From: an uncultured archaeon
GTDB taxonomy: Archaea > Asgardarchaeota > Heimdallarchaeia > Heimdallarchaeales > Kariarchaeaceae
DNA length: 35,701 nt
Direction of reading: 5' to 3'
Assembly (NCBI GenBank): GCA_964645535.1
Contig: CAZYCQ010000026.1
Span: 7,114-42,814 of the forward strand
How positions within the stretch are numbered: position 1 is the first letter of the stretch; every line of letters begins with the position of its first letter. Positions 18,983-24,914 of the stretch are shown in pieces. The notes beneath the pieces are model-generated. The model saw only the letters and a program-made list of their open reading frames with translations. It did no database searches and was not told the DNA's origin. The translations under genes were made by a program, and so were the position numbers.

Positions 18983-19423
18983 ATGGGATTTCAACCTATT
19001 GATCTCAATGATTTACCCCAATCCGATATTGAATTGATAGAAAAAGCCATTATGGCAAAAAATTTCTCATATTCCCCTTACTCAAAATTTAGGGTTGGAT
19101 CTGCACTTTTGACAGAAACAGGCGAGATATACACAGGGTGCAATATCGAAAACATATCATTTTCACCGACCATCTGTGCAGAACGAACTGCAATTTTCAA
19201 GGCAATTAGCGAAGGAAGAATGAAATTTCGGAAAATCGTGGTTGCAGTTGATGACAAGAATTTCTGCACACCTTGTGGAGTTTGCAGGCAAGTCTTGAGT
19301 GAATTCTGCGATAGAAATTTGGAGGTTTTTCTTGTCAACGGAGAACGAAAGGTTGTCAAGACAGATTTTGGATCAATTTTTCCAGGTGTCTTTCAACCAG
19401 AAAGTTCTATTGGGAAGAATTAG
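18983..19423 (+). CDS. cdd: Cytidine deaminase (homotetrameric type)
   Basis: SYSPYSKFRVGSAL, GCNIEN, ICAERTA, PCGVCRQVL. Confidence 0.96.
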   Translation: MGFQPIDLNDLPQSDIELIEKAIMAKNFSYSPYSKFRVGSALLTETGEIYTGCNIENISFSPTICAERTAIFKAISEGRMKFRKIVVAVDDKNFCTPCGVCRQVLSEFCDRNLEVFLVNGERKVVKTDFGSIFPGVFQPESSIGKN

Positions 19424-21627
19424 TTCTCATCAGAATCCGTACCTTGGTAGACAATCACCATCCGGTTATCAAGAACTTCCATCTTGATATCCAAGTCATC
19501 CTTCATAACCAATTCAGCGATCATGACCTCAAGCTTTTTCGGATCCAAGTTTAGGGTTTCAGCCAATGTGCTTAGAGGGACAACCCGCAGTTTCTTAATC
19601 TTTCTGGCAAGATCGATTCGTTCAAGTTTACGAACCATTTGAGGGGGCAGAACGCTTCCGGTAATCCTAGCTATTGCATTGTTGTCTCCTTCTTTCCAAT
19701 AGACCATGATCTTGTTGATTGTTGTTATGAAAGACCCGCTGTAACGTAATAGGGGAGATCGTCTTATCAGTTCTTCTGCCCGATCAATGGAGAAATTGAT
19801 GATCAATTCAATTCCCACCATCGCGGCATTGAATGCAGTCAAAATATTCCATATTTCTGGAGATGGATCTGCTTTTCCATCAAGAATGTTCAAAAGACCT
19901 GAAATTGCCACTCTTGACAATCTTTTGGATCCAAGGACGATTTGAAGAAGAGTCACCTTTCCCAATTCCGTGATGACGGGATTGTCTTGGTTAGGAACCG
20001 AAATCGGATGGAGAACATTCTGAACCACTTTTTCGCAGAGTTCAATATTGGTTTCCCTCAGATATTTGAAACTATTTGCAATCTTGGTGATGTAATCCTC
20101 ATCAAGATTTGAGATTTTATTGAGTATTCTTTGCGTCAGAATCTGCTCATAGCTTTGTTTGTGGTTCAAATACAAGAGGTTAATGAGGTTCCCCAATTCC
20201 TGTTTCTTTTCGATCGGTTCTGTTTCAATCCATTTTGAAATCAGAATCGAGGCAACTACAACCTCTTGGTCGGAATCACGATTGCAAACGTTCTGTAACC
20301 ATAATTGTGCCTGCTCATTTCTTTTTTCAATGATCTCATCAATCGTTACCTTGATTGAATCCTCAAAAGAAAGATCCTTAGGGGGTTTGTATGTTTCTTC
20401 CTCTTGCTCCTCGATCTCAATTTCTTTTTGCTCTTCTTCTGGTTTACTCTCTTCTTCAACAACACTTTTTGTCTTGACGGGTTCATCTTTCAATTTCAGT
20501 CTTGTAGAGGTTTCATCATCCTCTTCCCGTATTTCATCAATTGAAATGGCAGTTTTCAAGCTATTGCCTTCAGTTTTCACTGTTGGAATCTCAACCTTAC
20601 CATTAAGTTCTATATTTGCAATGTTGAAAAGAGATTCAACCAAATTCCTGGCAATTCCGGAGAAGTCTTTGTATGATTGACCAAACATTGGGATAATCTC
20701 TCTGATAACTTTGATTTCGCCATCATAAAGTCTCTGAAGTTCTTCTTCAGAAGCATCCTTGTCAATTACAACATAATCGAATATTTCCGAGAAATAAGAA
20801 TCAAAGGATTCGAAGTCCTCAAATCCGAGCAAAGGAGATAGTTCAGCATCTCTTTCTGAACTATCTGCTGCCAGTTTGGGGTTCCATAGAATAACTGCTT
20901 TATTCAATGGAGAAAGTTTTTTCACTTGTTGTGAGAGGGATTTGGATCTCAGAAAAACCTCCAGACTCAGAATGTCTGTAGGAATGAAAACCACAAGATC
21001 TGATTCTCCAAGTACATCCTTGACTCGATCATTGAGTTTCACTGATTCCAGTTTTTCAATCCCCTCAATTTCCAAACTTTTATTTCCCTTCTTTTTCTTT
21101 CCCTCTTCCCCATTCAATTTTGCGATATCAAAAAGCAGTTCCCCTGTTTCTGAGTAATATCTCAGGGGAGACCAACGTTTTTGCTTGACTGCAATCAGGT
21201 TCGGATTGAAGTCGGATAAAGGAAATATCTTGAGCTGTTTCTTTCCCACCTGACCTTCTAGGACTTCATATGCGCTTTCAATGTTTTTTGAGACGCTTTC
21301 AATTTGATTTATGTTATAGAGAATATGTAAATCGTCCTCTTCAAATTTCTTATCGTCTGCCAAACTTGAAAGAAGTTCCTCCTTAATTTTTGAAGGGATG
21401 GGGAAGGCTTCTTGTACATTTTCCGTTGTCTGCTTAAGTACAGTGACAAGTTCCCAAGGGAATAATTTAATTGGTTGAAACTTCTCCGTTTCAATCTCAT
21501 AATCCAGTAAATTTGAGCAAATGATATTGAGATGGATTCCTTCCACTTTTGTCAACATTTCCAAAACAGGACTTTCAACCTTTCCTGATACAATAATGGA
21601 AATGTTTGGAACGGTATCGCTGCTCAT
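19420..21627 (-). CDS. Multidomain protein: degenerate CofD-like N-domain, acidic linker, helical region, C-terminal PCI-like winged helix
   Basis: CofD-like blocks KIFPLSD, VKDVLGESDLVVFIPTD and FSEIFDYVVIDKD. The C-terminal VPLSTLAETLNLDPKKLEVMIAELVMKDDLDIKMEVLDNRMVIVY is PCI-like. Confidence 0.8.
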   Translation of the reverse strand: MSSDTVPNISIIVSGKVESPVLEMLTKVEGIHLNIICSNLLDYEIETEKFQPIKLFPWELVTVLKQTTENVQEAFPIPSKIKEELLSSLADDKKFEEDDLHILYNINQIESVSKNIESAYEVLEGQVGKKQLKIFPLSDFNPNLIAVKQKRWSPLRYYSETGELLFDIAKLNGEEGKKKKGNKSLEIEGIEKLESVKLNDRVKDVLGESDLVVFIPTDILSLEVFLRSKSLSQQVKKLSPLNKAVILWNPKLAADSSERDAELSPLLGFEDFESFDSYFSEIFDYVVIDKDASEEELQRLYDGEIKVIREIIPMFGQSYKDFSGIARNLVESLFNIANIELNGKVEIPTVKTEGNSLKTAISIDEIREEDDETSTRLKLKDEPVKTKSVVEEESKPEEEQKEIEIEEQEEETYKPPKDLSFEDSIKVTIDEIIEKRNEQAQLWLQNVCNRDSDQEVVVASILISKWIETEPIEKKQELGNLINLLYLNHKQSYEQILTQRILNKISNLDEDYITKIANSFKYLRETNIELCEKVVQNVLHPISVPNQDNPVITELGKVTLLQIVLGSKRLSRVAISGLLNILDGKADPSPEIWNILTAFNAAMVGIELIINFSIDRAEELIRRSPLLRYSGSFITTINKIMVYWKEGDNNAIARITGSVLPPQMVRKLERIDLARKIKKLRVVPLSTLAETLNLDPKKLEVMIAELVMKDDLDIKMEVLDNRMVIVYQGTDSDEN

Positions 21628-21809
21628 TATTGTTCAGTGCTCGATACTCTTTTTTCATCAACTTAAAGGATTCGGTCGAAATCTTAGATGAAATAAGTAT
21701 CCATTTTTCTAAGGGTCGCAATAGTTTGAAATTTGGAGTCTTTAGATGAATGGCCAAAAAAAATTGGAAATGGTTGAACTTCAACAGGAATTTTCGTCTA
21801 ATTTATTGA

Positions 21810-22454
21810 TCATGAGTTTGAAATGGGGAATCTTGGCAGGACAATCTTGAAAAAGGAATAGTTGACCATGATCATTGAGAATACCAGCAACTGAGGAATG
21901 AATGATCCAAGGATTGATGAAAAAACCGGGCTGATCACCGCTACAAGGCTTGGAGTACAGCAGGAAACCAAACTTGCTGAGGCAGACATTAAGGCGCCGA
22001 AAGAAGAAGTTGCCGTTTCTGTAGTTCCTTTGACCTGTTTATCCGTTTTTGTGGGTTGAAGGGTACAAACCGGAGGGAGGGTAAAATGAACGGAATAGGT
22101 TATGGCAATCAACAATGAGAGTGCAATGAAGGTTGTACCAGGAAACCAGATGAAGATTATTGCCCAGTGTGTTGTGAGATTAAATTTTAATTCATAGGAA
22201 TTGATGAAAATTCCTGGTTCAAGATAGTAAAATTCAGCAATACCACCAGTCAGGAAAATAAGGATGAACAGCATGGAGAAAAACAGAATGATAAAACGTA
22301 AGAACAATTTCTTTTTCATTTGTAAGTCAATGTAGTAATCGGATTGACGTAGTCTTCTGATCAAAAATAACAAGGGAACAGTGATCCCAATTATCGGCAA
22401 TCCAACAACGTTCCATAGCTGAGACAAGTCCACATCCATCATGACGGCATGCAT
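21810..22454 (-). CDS. Membrane protein with a vicinal Cys-Cys motif
   Basis: About 5 hydrophobic segments; PPVCTLQ and ASLVSCCTPSLVA. The start may be a few codons downstream (MMDVD). Confidence 0.7.
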   Translation of the reverse strand: MHAVMMDVDLSQLWNVVGLPIIGITVPLLFLIRRLRQSDYYIDLQMKKKLFLRFIILFFSMLFILIFLTGGIAEFYYLEPGIFINSYELKFNLTTHWAIIFIWFPGTTFIALSLLIAITYSVHFTLPPVCTLQPTKTDKQVKGTTETATSSFGALMSASASLVSCCTPSLVAVISPVFSSILGSFIPQLLVFSMIMVNYSFFKIVLPRFPISNS

Positions 22455-22490
22455 ATATTAAAACATGAACTTCTGAAAAATGGGATGCCA

Positions 22491-22988
22491 TCAATCCATT
22501 TTACCGTACCAGAGATTTCCGGGAATATCCACGATGTTTCCCCAATGCATTCCCTTCTCGAACTGAATGGGAGGAAGAGAATATAGGTGTCGATAGTGGA
22601 TAAGCATTGCTCCGTGATGGAGCGCATGATTGAAGGATCGTATCATAATCCATGGGATTGACAGACGGGGTTTTTCTTCATCTTTGGATTTCCAATATAG
22701 CTCCTTTTCGTCTTCCAGTGCATTTGCAAAATATTCTTCCTGCTTACGCAAAACTTCGAAAAACTGATCGACTGTCTTGATTGATGAACTGAAGGGAAAC
22801 CGTGTTCCCCTCTGTTTCATCCACCATCCAGGGGTTCCCACTACATGTTGAAGCAACTCAAAAGGAGTAAGCGCGGTTCCGATTTTTTCATGGAATTTTT
22901 CTTCTGGAAAGCCTTCCAATATTTTTTTGAAATATGGTTCAATCGTCTGATATGCACTCAAAGCGTGTTCCCGTAAGATTTCTTTCAT
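22491..22988 (-). CDS. DinB/YfiT family protein
   Basis: TPFELLQHVV...IPWIMIRSFNHALHHGAML carries the H...HxxH DinB metal triad. Confidence 0.85.
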   Translation of the reverse strand: MKEILREHALSAYQTIEPYFKKILEGFPEEKFHEKIGTALTPFELLQHVVGTPGWWMKQRGTRFPFSSSIKTVDQFFEVLRKQEEYFANALEDEKELYWKSKDEEKPRLSIPWIMIRSFNHALHHGAMLIHYRHLYSLPPIQFEKGMHWGNIVDIPGNLWYGKMD

Positions 22989-23033
22989 AGTTGTCTACAA
23001 TTGTGATCGCATTTAAGGATTTGTCAGATCTTA

Positions 23034-23645
23034 TTAGACCACAAAATATTTTGTTGTTCCACCTATTTTTTCCTTTCCAACATGACCTCTCTCAAAAAGA
23101 GTTTCTACTACACGTAAAACGGATTCTGTATCCAAATTCAGATCACTTGCTATGTTCCCGATCGTTGTCTCTTTTTTTCTCAATAGATATTTGGCTATAT
23201 CTTGGAGTTCCGGTTCCAGAAAAATTAGTGTTTTTGCATCCAATGGATTTCTTGGATCAATCCTGAGGTCTTGTGGATCATGACCGATCACCTCGTCAAT
23301 ATCTTCATTGAACCCTTCAAAATCAATGGTTTCTCCTTTCCAATTTTCAATCAAGGTCTTATATCTTCTCATGAACAAAATGCCAAGATGTTTGACTTTC
23401 TCGATTGCCTTGGTAGATCGTGTAGAGACCAGTACAACATAGAATGGTCCAGCACGTTCTGCGGAGAATTGAATCGGTCCAGCGGTTAGCTCTGAAAAAT
23501 ATGTACCTGTTACTTCTTTAATGAAATTCTGCATTGCAACAATCATGGCAGAAACAAGATCCTCATCCGGAGCAATGGTTGAGAATCGCTTGGAAAAAGC
23601 GTTTCTTCCATCTTCAGCAATGATATAAACCGCGTGTGGTCTCAC
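23034..23645 (-). CDS. Longin-like domain fused to a C-terminal winged-helix (HTH) domain
   Basis: HAVYIIAEDGRNAFSKRF...DEDLVSAMIVAMQNFIKEVTG, then TTIGNIASDLNLDTESVLRVVETLFERGHVGKEKIGGTTKYFV. The GTG start overlaps the upstream TGA, with a GGAGG SD. Confidence 0.85.
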   Translation of the reverse strand: MRPHAVYIIAEDGRNAFSKRFSTIAPDEDLVSAMIVAMQNFIKEVTGTYFSELTAGPIQFSAERAGPFYVVLVSTRSTKAIEKVKHLGILFMRRYKTLIENWKGETIDFEGFNEDIDEVIGHDPQDLRIDPRNPLDAKTLIFLEPELQDIAKYLLRKKETTIGNIASDLNLDTESVLRVVETLFERGHVGKEKIGGTTKYFVV

Positions 23646-24508
23646 ATGTCTTCCTCCTTCTTAAACGCCAATTTTAGAAAACAATCTGCAATTTGGGGCA
23701 TGTTCTTTGCAAGATTTCCATTTGGATTGGCAACTACGTGAATGGGACGTTGAGCCTTTAGTCCTTCCAAAAAGTACATTGCAAATTCCGCTTCTTTCTC
23801 AATAACCTCAAAATCAATTGGGATAAAGCCACAGACATTGACTTTTTGTGGGTCAACAAATTCAATGATATGCTTTCTGACCAGCATCTTAGTGTATTCT
23901 TCACCATCATCTTCAAGGAATGCATGTGGAACTTGATTCAAGATCAATGATGTCCTTGGTTTCAATCCAGAATAAAGCGTTTCGAGCATCTGCCGAGTTC
24001 CAGAAATGTCTGCATTGATCAACCTCAGCATGAGGATCAAATGCTTGGCCGCTGCAACTGCATTCAAGGAATCCGCTGAAAAACCGGGTGATGTGTCAAG
24101 AATTACGAAGTCTGCGTTCCATGGGTCTTTGGGAAGGATATCGTCAATTAGAGAGATCAGTTTGTATAAATTGTCCAATGAGGCTTCCTTAGTCTGTTGG
24201 GTAATCTTGGAAATGATTTCACTCTTATCATCAGCTAGACCCATGAACAATTTTCCCTCAATATTTCGTCCAATCAAAGTGGTTGCATCAAAGATAAATT
24301 CATCAGGACGTGCCTGACCACTAAAGTAATCGTTGATTCTTTTCTTTCCTTCCCCGTCGATGTAGGTCTGCAAGCTCGGGGCGCCCAAGTCCATATCCAG
24401 AATGACAACCCGAAATCCTTGCTGTACCAGATAAGCTGCGAGGTTTACGGACAGAAGTGTTTTTCCTGTTCCACCACGTAAACTATGAACCGCTATAGTC
24501 AAAGTCAT
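23642..24508 (-). CDS. MinD/ParA-family ATPase
   Basis: IAVHSLRGGTGKT (deviant Walker A), LDMDLGAPSL, VILDTSPG, ILNQVP. The start is trimmed to MTLTIAV at 24508. Confidence 0.92.
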   Translation of the reverse strand: MTLTIAVHSLRGGTGKTLLSVNLAAYLVQQGFRVVILDMDLGAPSLQTYIDGEGKKRINDYFSGQARPDEFIFDATTLIGRNIEGKLFMGLADDKSEIISKITQQTKEASLDNLYKLISLIDDILPKDPWNADFVILDTSPGFSADSLNAVAAAKHLILMLRLINADISGTRQMLETLYSGLKPRTSLILNQVPHAFLEDDGEEYTKMLVRKHIIEFVDPQKVNVCGFIPIDFEVIEKEAEFAMYFLEGLKAQRPIHVVANPNGNLAKNMPQIADCFLKLAFKKEEDM

Positions 24509-24593
24509 GCTTCGAACCTCAAGATATTTTAAAATGACCTTTTTTTTCCTTTGATTTTTGTCCTTGTTAAACTTTGCTTTGAGATTTGTCGTA

Positions 24594-24914
24594 TCACGAT
24601 TCAAGAATGTCATCTGCCCAAGATAAAGCCGCCATCATTTTTGCAAAGCCAACTTGGGTCGTCGAAAGAAAAATGGCATGGCGGATTTCATCGGCTGTGG
24701 CTCCGTGCCCCAATGCTTTGCGAACACTTGAATGAAGACTTCCTTCAGAACCAGTTCCGATGGCAATTCCTATCTTTATTAAGCTGATGGTTTTTTCATC
24801 AAGAGGGCCTGCATTCTTGATTGCATCGCCAAGCTTTTCATAAGCCCCAATGACTTCAGGATATTTTTCCTTAATCTGCATATACCGTTTGGGTGGACCA
24901 GTGTCTTTTCCCAT
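24594..24914 (-). CDS. Carboxymuconolactone decarboxylase (CMD/AhpD-like) family protein
   Basis: GPLDEKTISLIKIGIAIG...SLHSSVRKALGHGATADEIRHAI...VGFAKMMAALSW. No CxxC. Confidence 0.9.
   Translation of the reverse strand: MGKDTGPPKRYMQIKEKYPEVIGAYEKLGDAIKNAGPLDEKTISLIKIGIAIGTGSEGSLHSSVRKALGHGATADEIRHAIFLSTTQVGFAKMMAALSWADDILES

Follow-up and report, generated by a model that had tools for sequence, protein, structure and literature searches.

A protein of Heimdallarchaeia that joins a CofD-related head to a putative PCI-type helical scaffold

PCI scaffolds organise three central eukaryotic machines, namely the proteasome lid, the COP9 signalosome (CSN) and eIF3, and their prokaryotic roots are obscure. 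Heimdallarchaeia are the archaeal class usually placed nearest eukaryotes. We analysed a stretch of 35,701 nucleotides from a Heimdall-group Asgard archaeon (assembly GCA_964645535.1, contig CAZYCQ010000026.1, positions 7,114 to 42,814), hereafter the window, and studied one gene in it that encodes a fusion protein of four parts: a head, a linker, helical repeats and a winged helix. The head is homologous to CofD/FbiA, with a likeness far above chance. For the scaffold formed by the helices and the winged helix, PCI-type is the best-supported label. We searched the literature on PCI, CofD and Asgard/Heimdallarchaeia proteins and found no published description of this combination.

CofD is the LPPG:Fo 2-phospho-L-lactate transferase and FbiA the phosphoenolpyruvate transferase of F420 biosynthesis, and both are dimers (dimer state: PMC7253369). 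FbiA binds its catalytic metal (Ca2+/Mg2+) via Asp45 and Asp57 (PMC7253369). GlmR/YvcK, a member of the CofD superfamily, binds UDP-N-acetylglucosamine (UDP-GlcNAc) and switches between GlmS and YvcJ (PMC7525490). PCI-like winged helices have been mentioned in other Asgard proteins (PMC10936438). Following the GlmR/YvcK precedent, we propose as a working model that the fusion protein is a ligand-responsive dimeric adaptor; this is the best reading of the analysis, although a tentative one to which we give somewhat less than an even chance.

The head and its relation to CofD

In an exhaustive phmmer search, 43 of 1.84 billion representatives came out as relatives of the fusion protein at E ≤ 1e-3, mostly 720-900 amino acids long and matched end-to-end; the full-length relatives were 28-78% identical and aligned from residue 1. 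We scanned 32 of the 43 singly against Pfam. On the window's protein alone, Pfam left CofD (PF01933, curated cut-off 30 bits) unmatched at E ≤ 1 and NCBIfam matched nothing. In addition, the head gave no significant BLASTP match to the CofD of its own genome (E 0.4), and a PDB search with a profile from seven close relatives found nothing. As Pfam on the single protein left CofD unmatched and PCI below threshold, both assignments draw their support from profiles of the family and from structure.

A profile of 25 heads aligned in hhalign with a profile of 26 canonical CofD sequences over 288 columns (98.9% probability, E 1.5e-17), and the head profile matched M. mazei CofD in the PDB (E 5e-5). 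When the whole-family profile was run against the source genome, the genome's own CofD ranked second (E 7e-7). A hidden Markov model (HMM) of the heads matched a canonical Asgard CofD at E 2.4e-22. Pfam CofD matched 6 of the 32 singly scanned relatives below the cut-off (best E 7.4e-6, 25.8 bits), and the matches of these six kept the same order along the profile. The AlphaFold2 (AF2) model of the whole protein had a mean predicted local distance difference test score (pLDDT) of 83.5. With this model, Foldseek placed M. mazei CofD at the top (E 6.9e-8, template modelling (TM) score by target 0.71), and VIA-align superposed the head on M. mazei CofD 3cgw with Z 21.2 and a root-mean-square deviation (rmsd) of 3.5 Å, aligning 281 of the 303 residues of 3cgw. 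Against the same head, FbiA scored Z ~20-21, the YvcK/UPF0052 group Z 16-18 and the best unrelated fold Z 9.6.

The hhalign, VIA-align and Foldseek results bear out an earlier note on this DNA, which had taken the first ~340 amino acids to be CofD-like. The open reading frame (ORF) at 19420-21627 on which that note relied is present, as are the strings quoted from it: ISIIVSG (residues 9-15), SGKVE (14-18), KIFPLSD (133-139), VKDVLGESDLVVFIPTD (202-218) and FSEIFDYVVIDKD (279-291). The absence of the GGTG, PDxD and GDxD motifs was also read correctly; SGKV, ETEK and EEDD stand in their places. The expectation that automated annotation would call the protein cofD proved wrong: the family bears no such label, neither Pfam nor NCBIfam gives a CofD match on the protein, and its relatives in the databases are unnamed or called 'hypothetical protein' or 'C2H2-type zinc finger protein'. 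With no name in current annotation, the family goes unseen in pathway surveys and in surveys of eukaryotic signature proteins (ESP).

Six of the 30 invariant CofD columns retained their residue in the head. The glycine-rich loop SGGTGxxK, whose GGTG was invariant in 26 of 26 canonical CofD sequences, reads V13-S-G-K-V-E-S-P20 in the head, with G15 alone retained. Asp45 and Asp57 of FbiA align with D36 and D48 of Asgard CofD, and the head has L41 and T47 at these positions, the first being Leu in 20 of 25 heads and the second variable. CofD D37, which lies beside the metal Asp, is kept as D42, i.e., the second Asp of the CofD NTGDD motif. GPSNP of CofD became I215-P-T-D-I219, in which the Asn is replaced by D218, invariant in the family. 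A separate, intact CofD of 307 amino acids (PF01933, 145 bits), such as the earlier note had advised looking for, was found on another contig of the genome. Because the head has neither the GGTG loop nor an Asp at the two metal positions, and because the genome encodes an intact CofD elsewhere, the head is most probably not the F420 transferase. That is, going by its residues, it should be unable to perform CofD's reaction in CofD's way, and the suggestion that it is probably inactive is supported as far as CofD-type catalysis is concerned. A separate, intact cofD was present in 77 of 83 genomes of the class; canonical CofD is thus near-universal there, and its co-occurrence with the fusion is therefore uninformative on an F420-related ligand.

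The heads have invariants of their own. R156 (in PLRYY), D218 (in PTD) and D284 were invariant across the 25 diverged heads, and G15, D42, E59, L123 and P136 were nearly so. Mean column identity was 31% in the head and 32% in the scaffold. Such conservation is that of a remodelled site under purifying selection rather than of a decaying one, and several of the retained polar residues (D42, R156, D218 and D284) lie at or beside former active-site motifs.

Stand-alone CofD paralogues of ~310-400 amino acids were observed in other Asgard genomes (L050 at G013:C1:506773-507792, minus strand; L053-L056; L060). GGTG, NTGDD and PDLD are partly or fully lost in them, and by HMM scores and tree they form a graded series from canonical CofD to the fused head. 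In a maximum-likelihood tree of heads, stand-alone paralogues and CofD, the 25 heads formed one clade (support 100/98) apart from the others. As the tree is without an outgroup, it does not resolve the donor or the direction of the head's origin.

Instead of sensing a ligand, the head might be an enzyme with new chemistry, e.g., phospho- or nucleotidyl-transfer at a site made of D42, R156, D218 and D284, and the scaffold would then only localise or oligomerise it. The three residues invariant across diverged heads speak for such an enzyme, as does a head conserved as much as the scaffold, with D218 at the position of the PSNP Asn and D42 at that of the second Asp of NTGDD. The graded stand-alone Asgard paralogues, too, suggest functional diversification and not decay, and a GlmR homologue is said, in the title of one report, to have accessory uridyltransferase activity. 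However, the Gly-rich loop and both FbiA metal-ligand positions are lost and a substitute metal site is not evident from the sequence, and we regard a new enzyme as unlikely.

The scaffold, its winged helix and its predicted self-contact

Pfam PCI (PF01399) matched residues 675-717 of the window's protein at E 0.029, with 15.0 bits against a cut-off of 22. Among the relatives, 26 of 32 matched at E ≤ 0.1 (best 3.9e-8), and nine of ten distant relatives studied in detail scored above the PCI cut-off (22.4-27.4 bits). The AF2 model of residues 411-735 alone (pLDDT 89.8, predicted TM score (pTM) 0.82) consisted of fifteen helices and then a winged helix. Foldseek on this scaffold gave PCI subunits of the proteasome lid, CSN and eIF3 as top matches (E ~2e-3, probability 1.0), and an ESM Atlas shape search placed CSN2 and CSN1 at the top, with TM scores by query of 0.44-0.49 over 220-265 residues (CSN2: 0.45-0.49 over 254-265). 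The family profile matched the winged helices of eIF3e (E 3.6e-4), eIF3c and CSN2; for the helices, it matched the HEAT protein 2db0 (E 3.8e-5).

In the wide VIA search, MIF4G/MA3 domains were the best matches of the helices at ~420-650 (Z 9.3-11.1; CBP80 MIF4G Z 11.1, Pdcd4 MA3 Z 10.2), and many DNA-binding winged helices matched the winged helix as well as PCI ones did (Z 8-9). Because the unbiased fold search was the less specific, the PCI-type label is mainly drawn from the sequence signature. A search of 5.8 billion proteins with the scaffold profile (E ≤ 1e-3; word-sharing candidates of 178-580 amino acids) returned family fragments only and no eukaryotic PCI protein. The best score of an ESM Atlas feature search was 0.77, to an unnamed archaeal cluster, which is under the informative range.

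The succession of helices (421-656) and a PCI-like winged helix (662-727) foreseen in the earlier note is thus present in the AF2 model and agrees with the PCI matches of the relatives. Its further proposal of a lid/CSN/eIF3-type architecture stood for the layout, by profile, fold and family; the helices, which look more HEAT/MIF4G/MA3-like than TPR-like, and the predicted self-contact, which is not at the winged-helix edge, depart from it. Likewise, the linker is Glu-rich as described, with 19 Glu, and measures 65 residues rather than ~80. It carries a net charge of -13 and is predicted to be disordered (pLDDT <50). Residues 358-373 of the linker correspond to a motif, K-S-I-x-Q-L-x-E-S-P-E-E-A-G in the relatives, which is kept in the nearer half of the family only and may be a docking peptide.

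The scaffold is predicted to pair with itself. A two-copy model of residues 411-735 scored 0.72 by the interaction prediction score from aligned errors (ipSAE), and the best of three controls scored 0.00. Among proteins of solved structure, 20 of 30 same-chain pairs and 1 of 23 single chains attained that score; the self-pairing run used its own alignment, so these counts hold only roughly. Contact agreement among the self-pairing runs was at least 97% and partner pLDDT at least 87. The predicted interface has two-fold symmetry and is formed by the helices, not by the winged-helix edge used by the lid, CSN and eIF3. It contains eight of the 30 most conserved scaffold positions (E554, K557, W593, F599, A601, G631, S632 and G657), and, within the helices, its residues show modestly higher conservation than the rest (Mann-Whitney p 0.03).

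Conservation along the protein is highest in the winged helix, and the chain stops 8 residues after it. At the recognition-helix position (696-709, PKKLEVMIAELVMK), E700 is invariant and E705 nearly invariant, and the helix is otherwise hydrophobic. The conservation of E700 and E705 argues against direct DNA reading.

Other proteins of the class bear the scaffold with different ends. In one further family of the class (L045:7839-9644, L046:7805-9643, L047:7768-9567), a helical and PCI module of ~600 amino acids has a different N-terminal part and no CofD-like head; these proteins have a long linker and a basic tail rich in Lys, Thr and Ala. Because this family bears the scaffold with a different N-terminal part and tail, it is apparently the scaffold that stays constant while heads and tails are exchanged. 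Sister-family orthologues of the fusion (L039:7656-10535, L040:7510-10518, L041:8048-10654, L042:7779-10487, L049:8041-10593) carry tails of nucleic-acid-binding type after the winged helix: helix-hairpin-helix-like in L039 and L040, a C2H2 zinc finger in L041, and Lys/Ser/Thr-rich and basic in L042 and L049. The window's protein is without a basic tail and has an acidic C-terminal end.

These tails bear on another explanation, in which the protein would be a one-component nucleic-acid-binding regulator whose sensor head and dimerising region place the two C-terminal winged helices on DNA or RNA. The tails of the relatives (L039-L042, L049 and the Lys/Thr-rich basic L045-L047) are in keeping with this, as are the predicted two-fold dimer, helices that resemble MIF4G/MA3 of RNA-handling scaffolds, and a winged helix that superposes on those of NiaR, MarR and BirA as well as on PCI (Z 8-9). 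However, most of the singly scanned relatives match Pfam PCI, and helix-turn-helix (HTH) families match few of them, with weak E-values. Helix 696-709, with its two glutamates, is unlike a DNA-reading helix, and the orthologue in the window lacks the basic tail and ends in acidic residues. We consider that such a regulator is improbable.

Distribution, neighbouring genes and coordinates

The named family records all come from metagenome-assembled genomes (MAGs) of Heimdallarchaeota or Kariarchaeota. We searched 301 genomes of the phylum for the fusion. Full-length copies were found in 59 of 64 sampled genomes from five families of the class, one per genome; by family, end-to-end matches, including a few partial or split ones, numbered 10/10, 28/29, 1/1, 3/3 and 18/21. 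No fusion was found in the ~220 genomes of the phylum outside the class, which gave CofD-sized matches only. Head and scaffold lay in two adjacent frames in two genomes (G080:C2:52034-54614 and G283:C23:18898-21044); true gene splits, frameshifts or errors of assembly could account for this.

The coordinates of the fusion gene and its parts are given in Table 1. The cytidine deaminase gene (18983-19423, plus strand) is convergent with the fusion gene, with a 4-bp overlap of the two genes at the stop codons (19420-19423). The gap between the fusion gene and the gene upstream is 182 bp, and the TTTAAG in it suggests that the fusion gene may have its own promoter.

Table 1. Coordinates of the fusion gene and its features in the window, with the basis of each
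Feature	Residues	Position in window	Strand	Basis
Fusion gene (735 aa, ATG start, stop codon 19420-19422)		19420..21627	minus	ORF list and translation
CofD-derived head	8-340	20608..21606	minus	hhalign, VIA, Foldseek, residue mapping
Acidic linker, predicted disordered	346-410	20398..20592	minus	pLDDT <50 throughout, composition
Linker motif (KTAISIDEIREEDDET)	358-373	20509..20556	minus	Alignment columns
Helical-repeat region, 15 helices, HEAT/MIF4G/MA3-like	421-656	19660..20367	minus	AF2 models, VIA, profile match
Predicted two-fold self-contact surface	508-657	19657..20106	minus	Two-copy modelling of residues 411-735, conservation
PCI-type winged helix	662-727	19447..19644	minus	Pfam PCI, family profiles, window conservation
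TTTAAG, possible archaeal TATA-like box, ~37 nt upstream of ATG		21662..21667	minus	Read from sequence

Four genes upstream in the window (21810-24613, minus strand) share the strand of the fusion gene. They encode a ParA/MinD-type ATPase, a 203-amino-acid protein with a weak TrmB-like winged helix, and proteins of 165 and 214 amino acids, both of which were without any family match. Among the nearer relatives that were examined, the 214-amino-acid gene adjoins the fusion gene (in inverted orientation in L003), which it does not do in the family at large, and the ParA-like and winged-helix upstream genes accompany the fusion gene among close relatives only.

In four genomes of one subclade, whose fusion copies are only 34-43% identical, genes for a PAC2-family protein (proteasome-assembly-chaperone-like) and an Arf-like P-loop GTPase of ~190 amino acids lie directly upstream of the fusion gene (L004:1218-2767, L019:4338-5801, L022:4272-5714, L024:4450-5818), and they share its strand in two of the four. 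A gene for a DUF389 membrane protein is convergent and directly downstream in members of two sampled families and on one further contig (L005:2746-3630, L036:10380-11375, L037:7009-8013, L038:10364-11347, L039:6672-7640). We treat both neighbourhoods as leads only. In the window's own genome, further ORFs (L006-L011) match Pfam PCI, three of them above the cut-off (L006, i.e., G000:C11:40396-40590; L007; L008) and one in a 1670-amino-acid frame, and there are two MPN/JAB proteins of 229 and 285 amino acids (L051 and L052). None of these genes is near the fusion gene.

A working model and its comparison with described systems

In the proposed ligand-responsive dimeric adaptor, the head would bind a small ligand; by analogy with its relatives, a metabolite linked to a nucleotide is plausible. 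The earlier note had likewise suggested a ligand sensor or adaptor. The flexible acidic linker ties the head to a HEAT/MIF4G-like solenoid ending in the PCI-type winged helix. The solenoid is predicted to pair about a two-fold axis, so that both heads and both winged helices would remain free. Binding of the ligand would in turn alter the choice of binding partners of the dimeric scaffold and its winged helices.

Several results weigh against this model. A passing self-pairing score supports binding without showing it, and the dimer, as modelled, differs from the PCI-PCI contact of the lid, CSN and eIF3. The invariant Arg and Asp residues could just as well form a new catalytic centre. The unbiased VIA fold search was without a clear winner and did not single out PCI, with Z values that are common for such folds. 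In addition, BLASTP clustering of the ORFs from 24 loci revealed no neighbour conserved across the class, PCI and MPN genes included.

Very unlikely, in our view, is a purely structural scaffold, in which the head would be a ligand-free interaction module (a true pseudoenzyme with an empty pocket) in a larger PCI-type assembly with the genome's other PCI-like and MPN proteins. In its favour, such proteins exist in the genome (three PCI matches above the cut-off and two MPN/JAB proteins), and the head could be a second oligomerisation surface, since CofD and FbiA are dimers (PMC7253369). Against it, charged residues that are invariant and occupy former active-site motifs point to a pocket more than to a flat interface, the protein has no counterpart of the C-terminal helix by which lid and CSN subunits bundle, and PCI and MPN genes are not conserved neighbours.

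A more far-reaching interpretation would make the family an archaeal forerunner, or a sister, of the PCI scaffolds of eukaryotes: a dimeric PCI-type platform, near-universal in the class, in which a metabolite bound to a captured CofD-fold domain would control assembly or the choice of partners. We hold this to be quite unlikely. If it were true, the nearest archaeal relatives of eukaryotes would couple redox-cofactor or nucleotide metabolism to machinery linked with the proteasome, translation or nucleic acids. The PAC2 and GTPase genes upstream in one subclade and the nucleic-acid-binding tails in sister clades are leads in this direction. The fusion protein is a concrete, expressible subject for asking what role PCI-like scaffolds had before eukaryotes. 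Moreover, its head offers a clear example from nature of an enzyme fold that has been converted into a module other than CofD, whether a sensor or a new enzyme.

Compared with described systems, the scaffold shares with the PCI subunits of the lid (Rpn5/6/7/9), CSN (CSN1/2/4/7) and eIF3 (a/c/e) a solenoid of helices that leads into a winged helix, with a PCI sequence signature above the Pfam cut-off in most relatives examined in detail and below it in the window's protein. It differs from them in its HEAT/MIF4G-like helices, whereas lid subunits have TPR-like repeats, and in lacking the C-terminal bundling helix of lid and CSN subunits. The lid, CSN and eIF3 form a horseshoe with a side-by-side winged-helix sheet; here, the predicted self-contact is a two-fold helical interface. 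Unlike in the lid, CSN and eIF3 context, no MPN partner gene is linked to the fusion gene. The HEAT-repeat domains of the MIF4G/MA3 type (CBP80, eIF4G, Pdcd4, UPF2, CNOT1) were the best unbiased structural match to residues ~420-650; their Z values are in the usual range for helical repeats, no sequence-level link to them was found, and they are without a terminal PCI winged helix.

The head has the fold of CofD/FbiA (PF01933; 3C3D, 3C3E, 3CGW, 6UVX, 6UW1) over a domain of ~330 residues (Z 20-21, rmsd 3.5-3.9 Å) and keeps the order of their motif positions (G15, N/S38-D42, P136, P216-T217-D218, S221). Unlike CofD/FbiA, it is fused to ~400 more residues and falls below the Pfam cut-off. The new invariant PLRYY motif lies, by position, in the region of the deazaflavin-binding subdomain of FbiA (PMC7253369). 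GlmR/YvcK (UPF0052 branch; 2O2Z, 2HZB, 2PPV, 2Q7X) has the superfamily fold in common with the head (Z 16-18); it is structurally farther from the head than CofD/FbiA, stand-alone, bacterial and without a PCI-like module. GlmR/YvcK acts as a metabolite-binding regulator of other proteins and not as a pathway enzyme, and in this respect it is the model for the ligand-responsive adaptor that we propose here.

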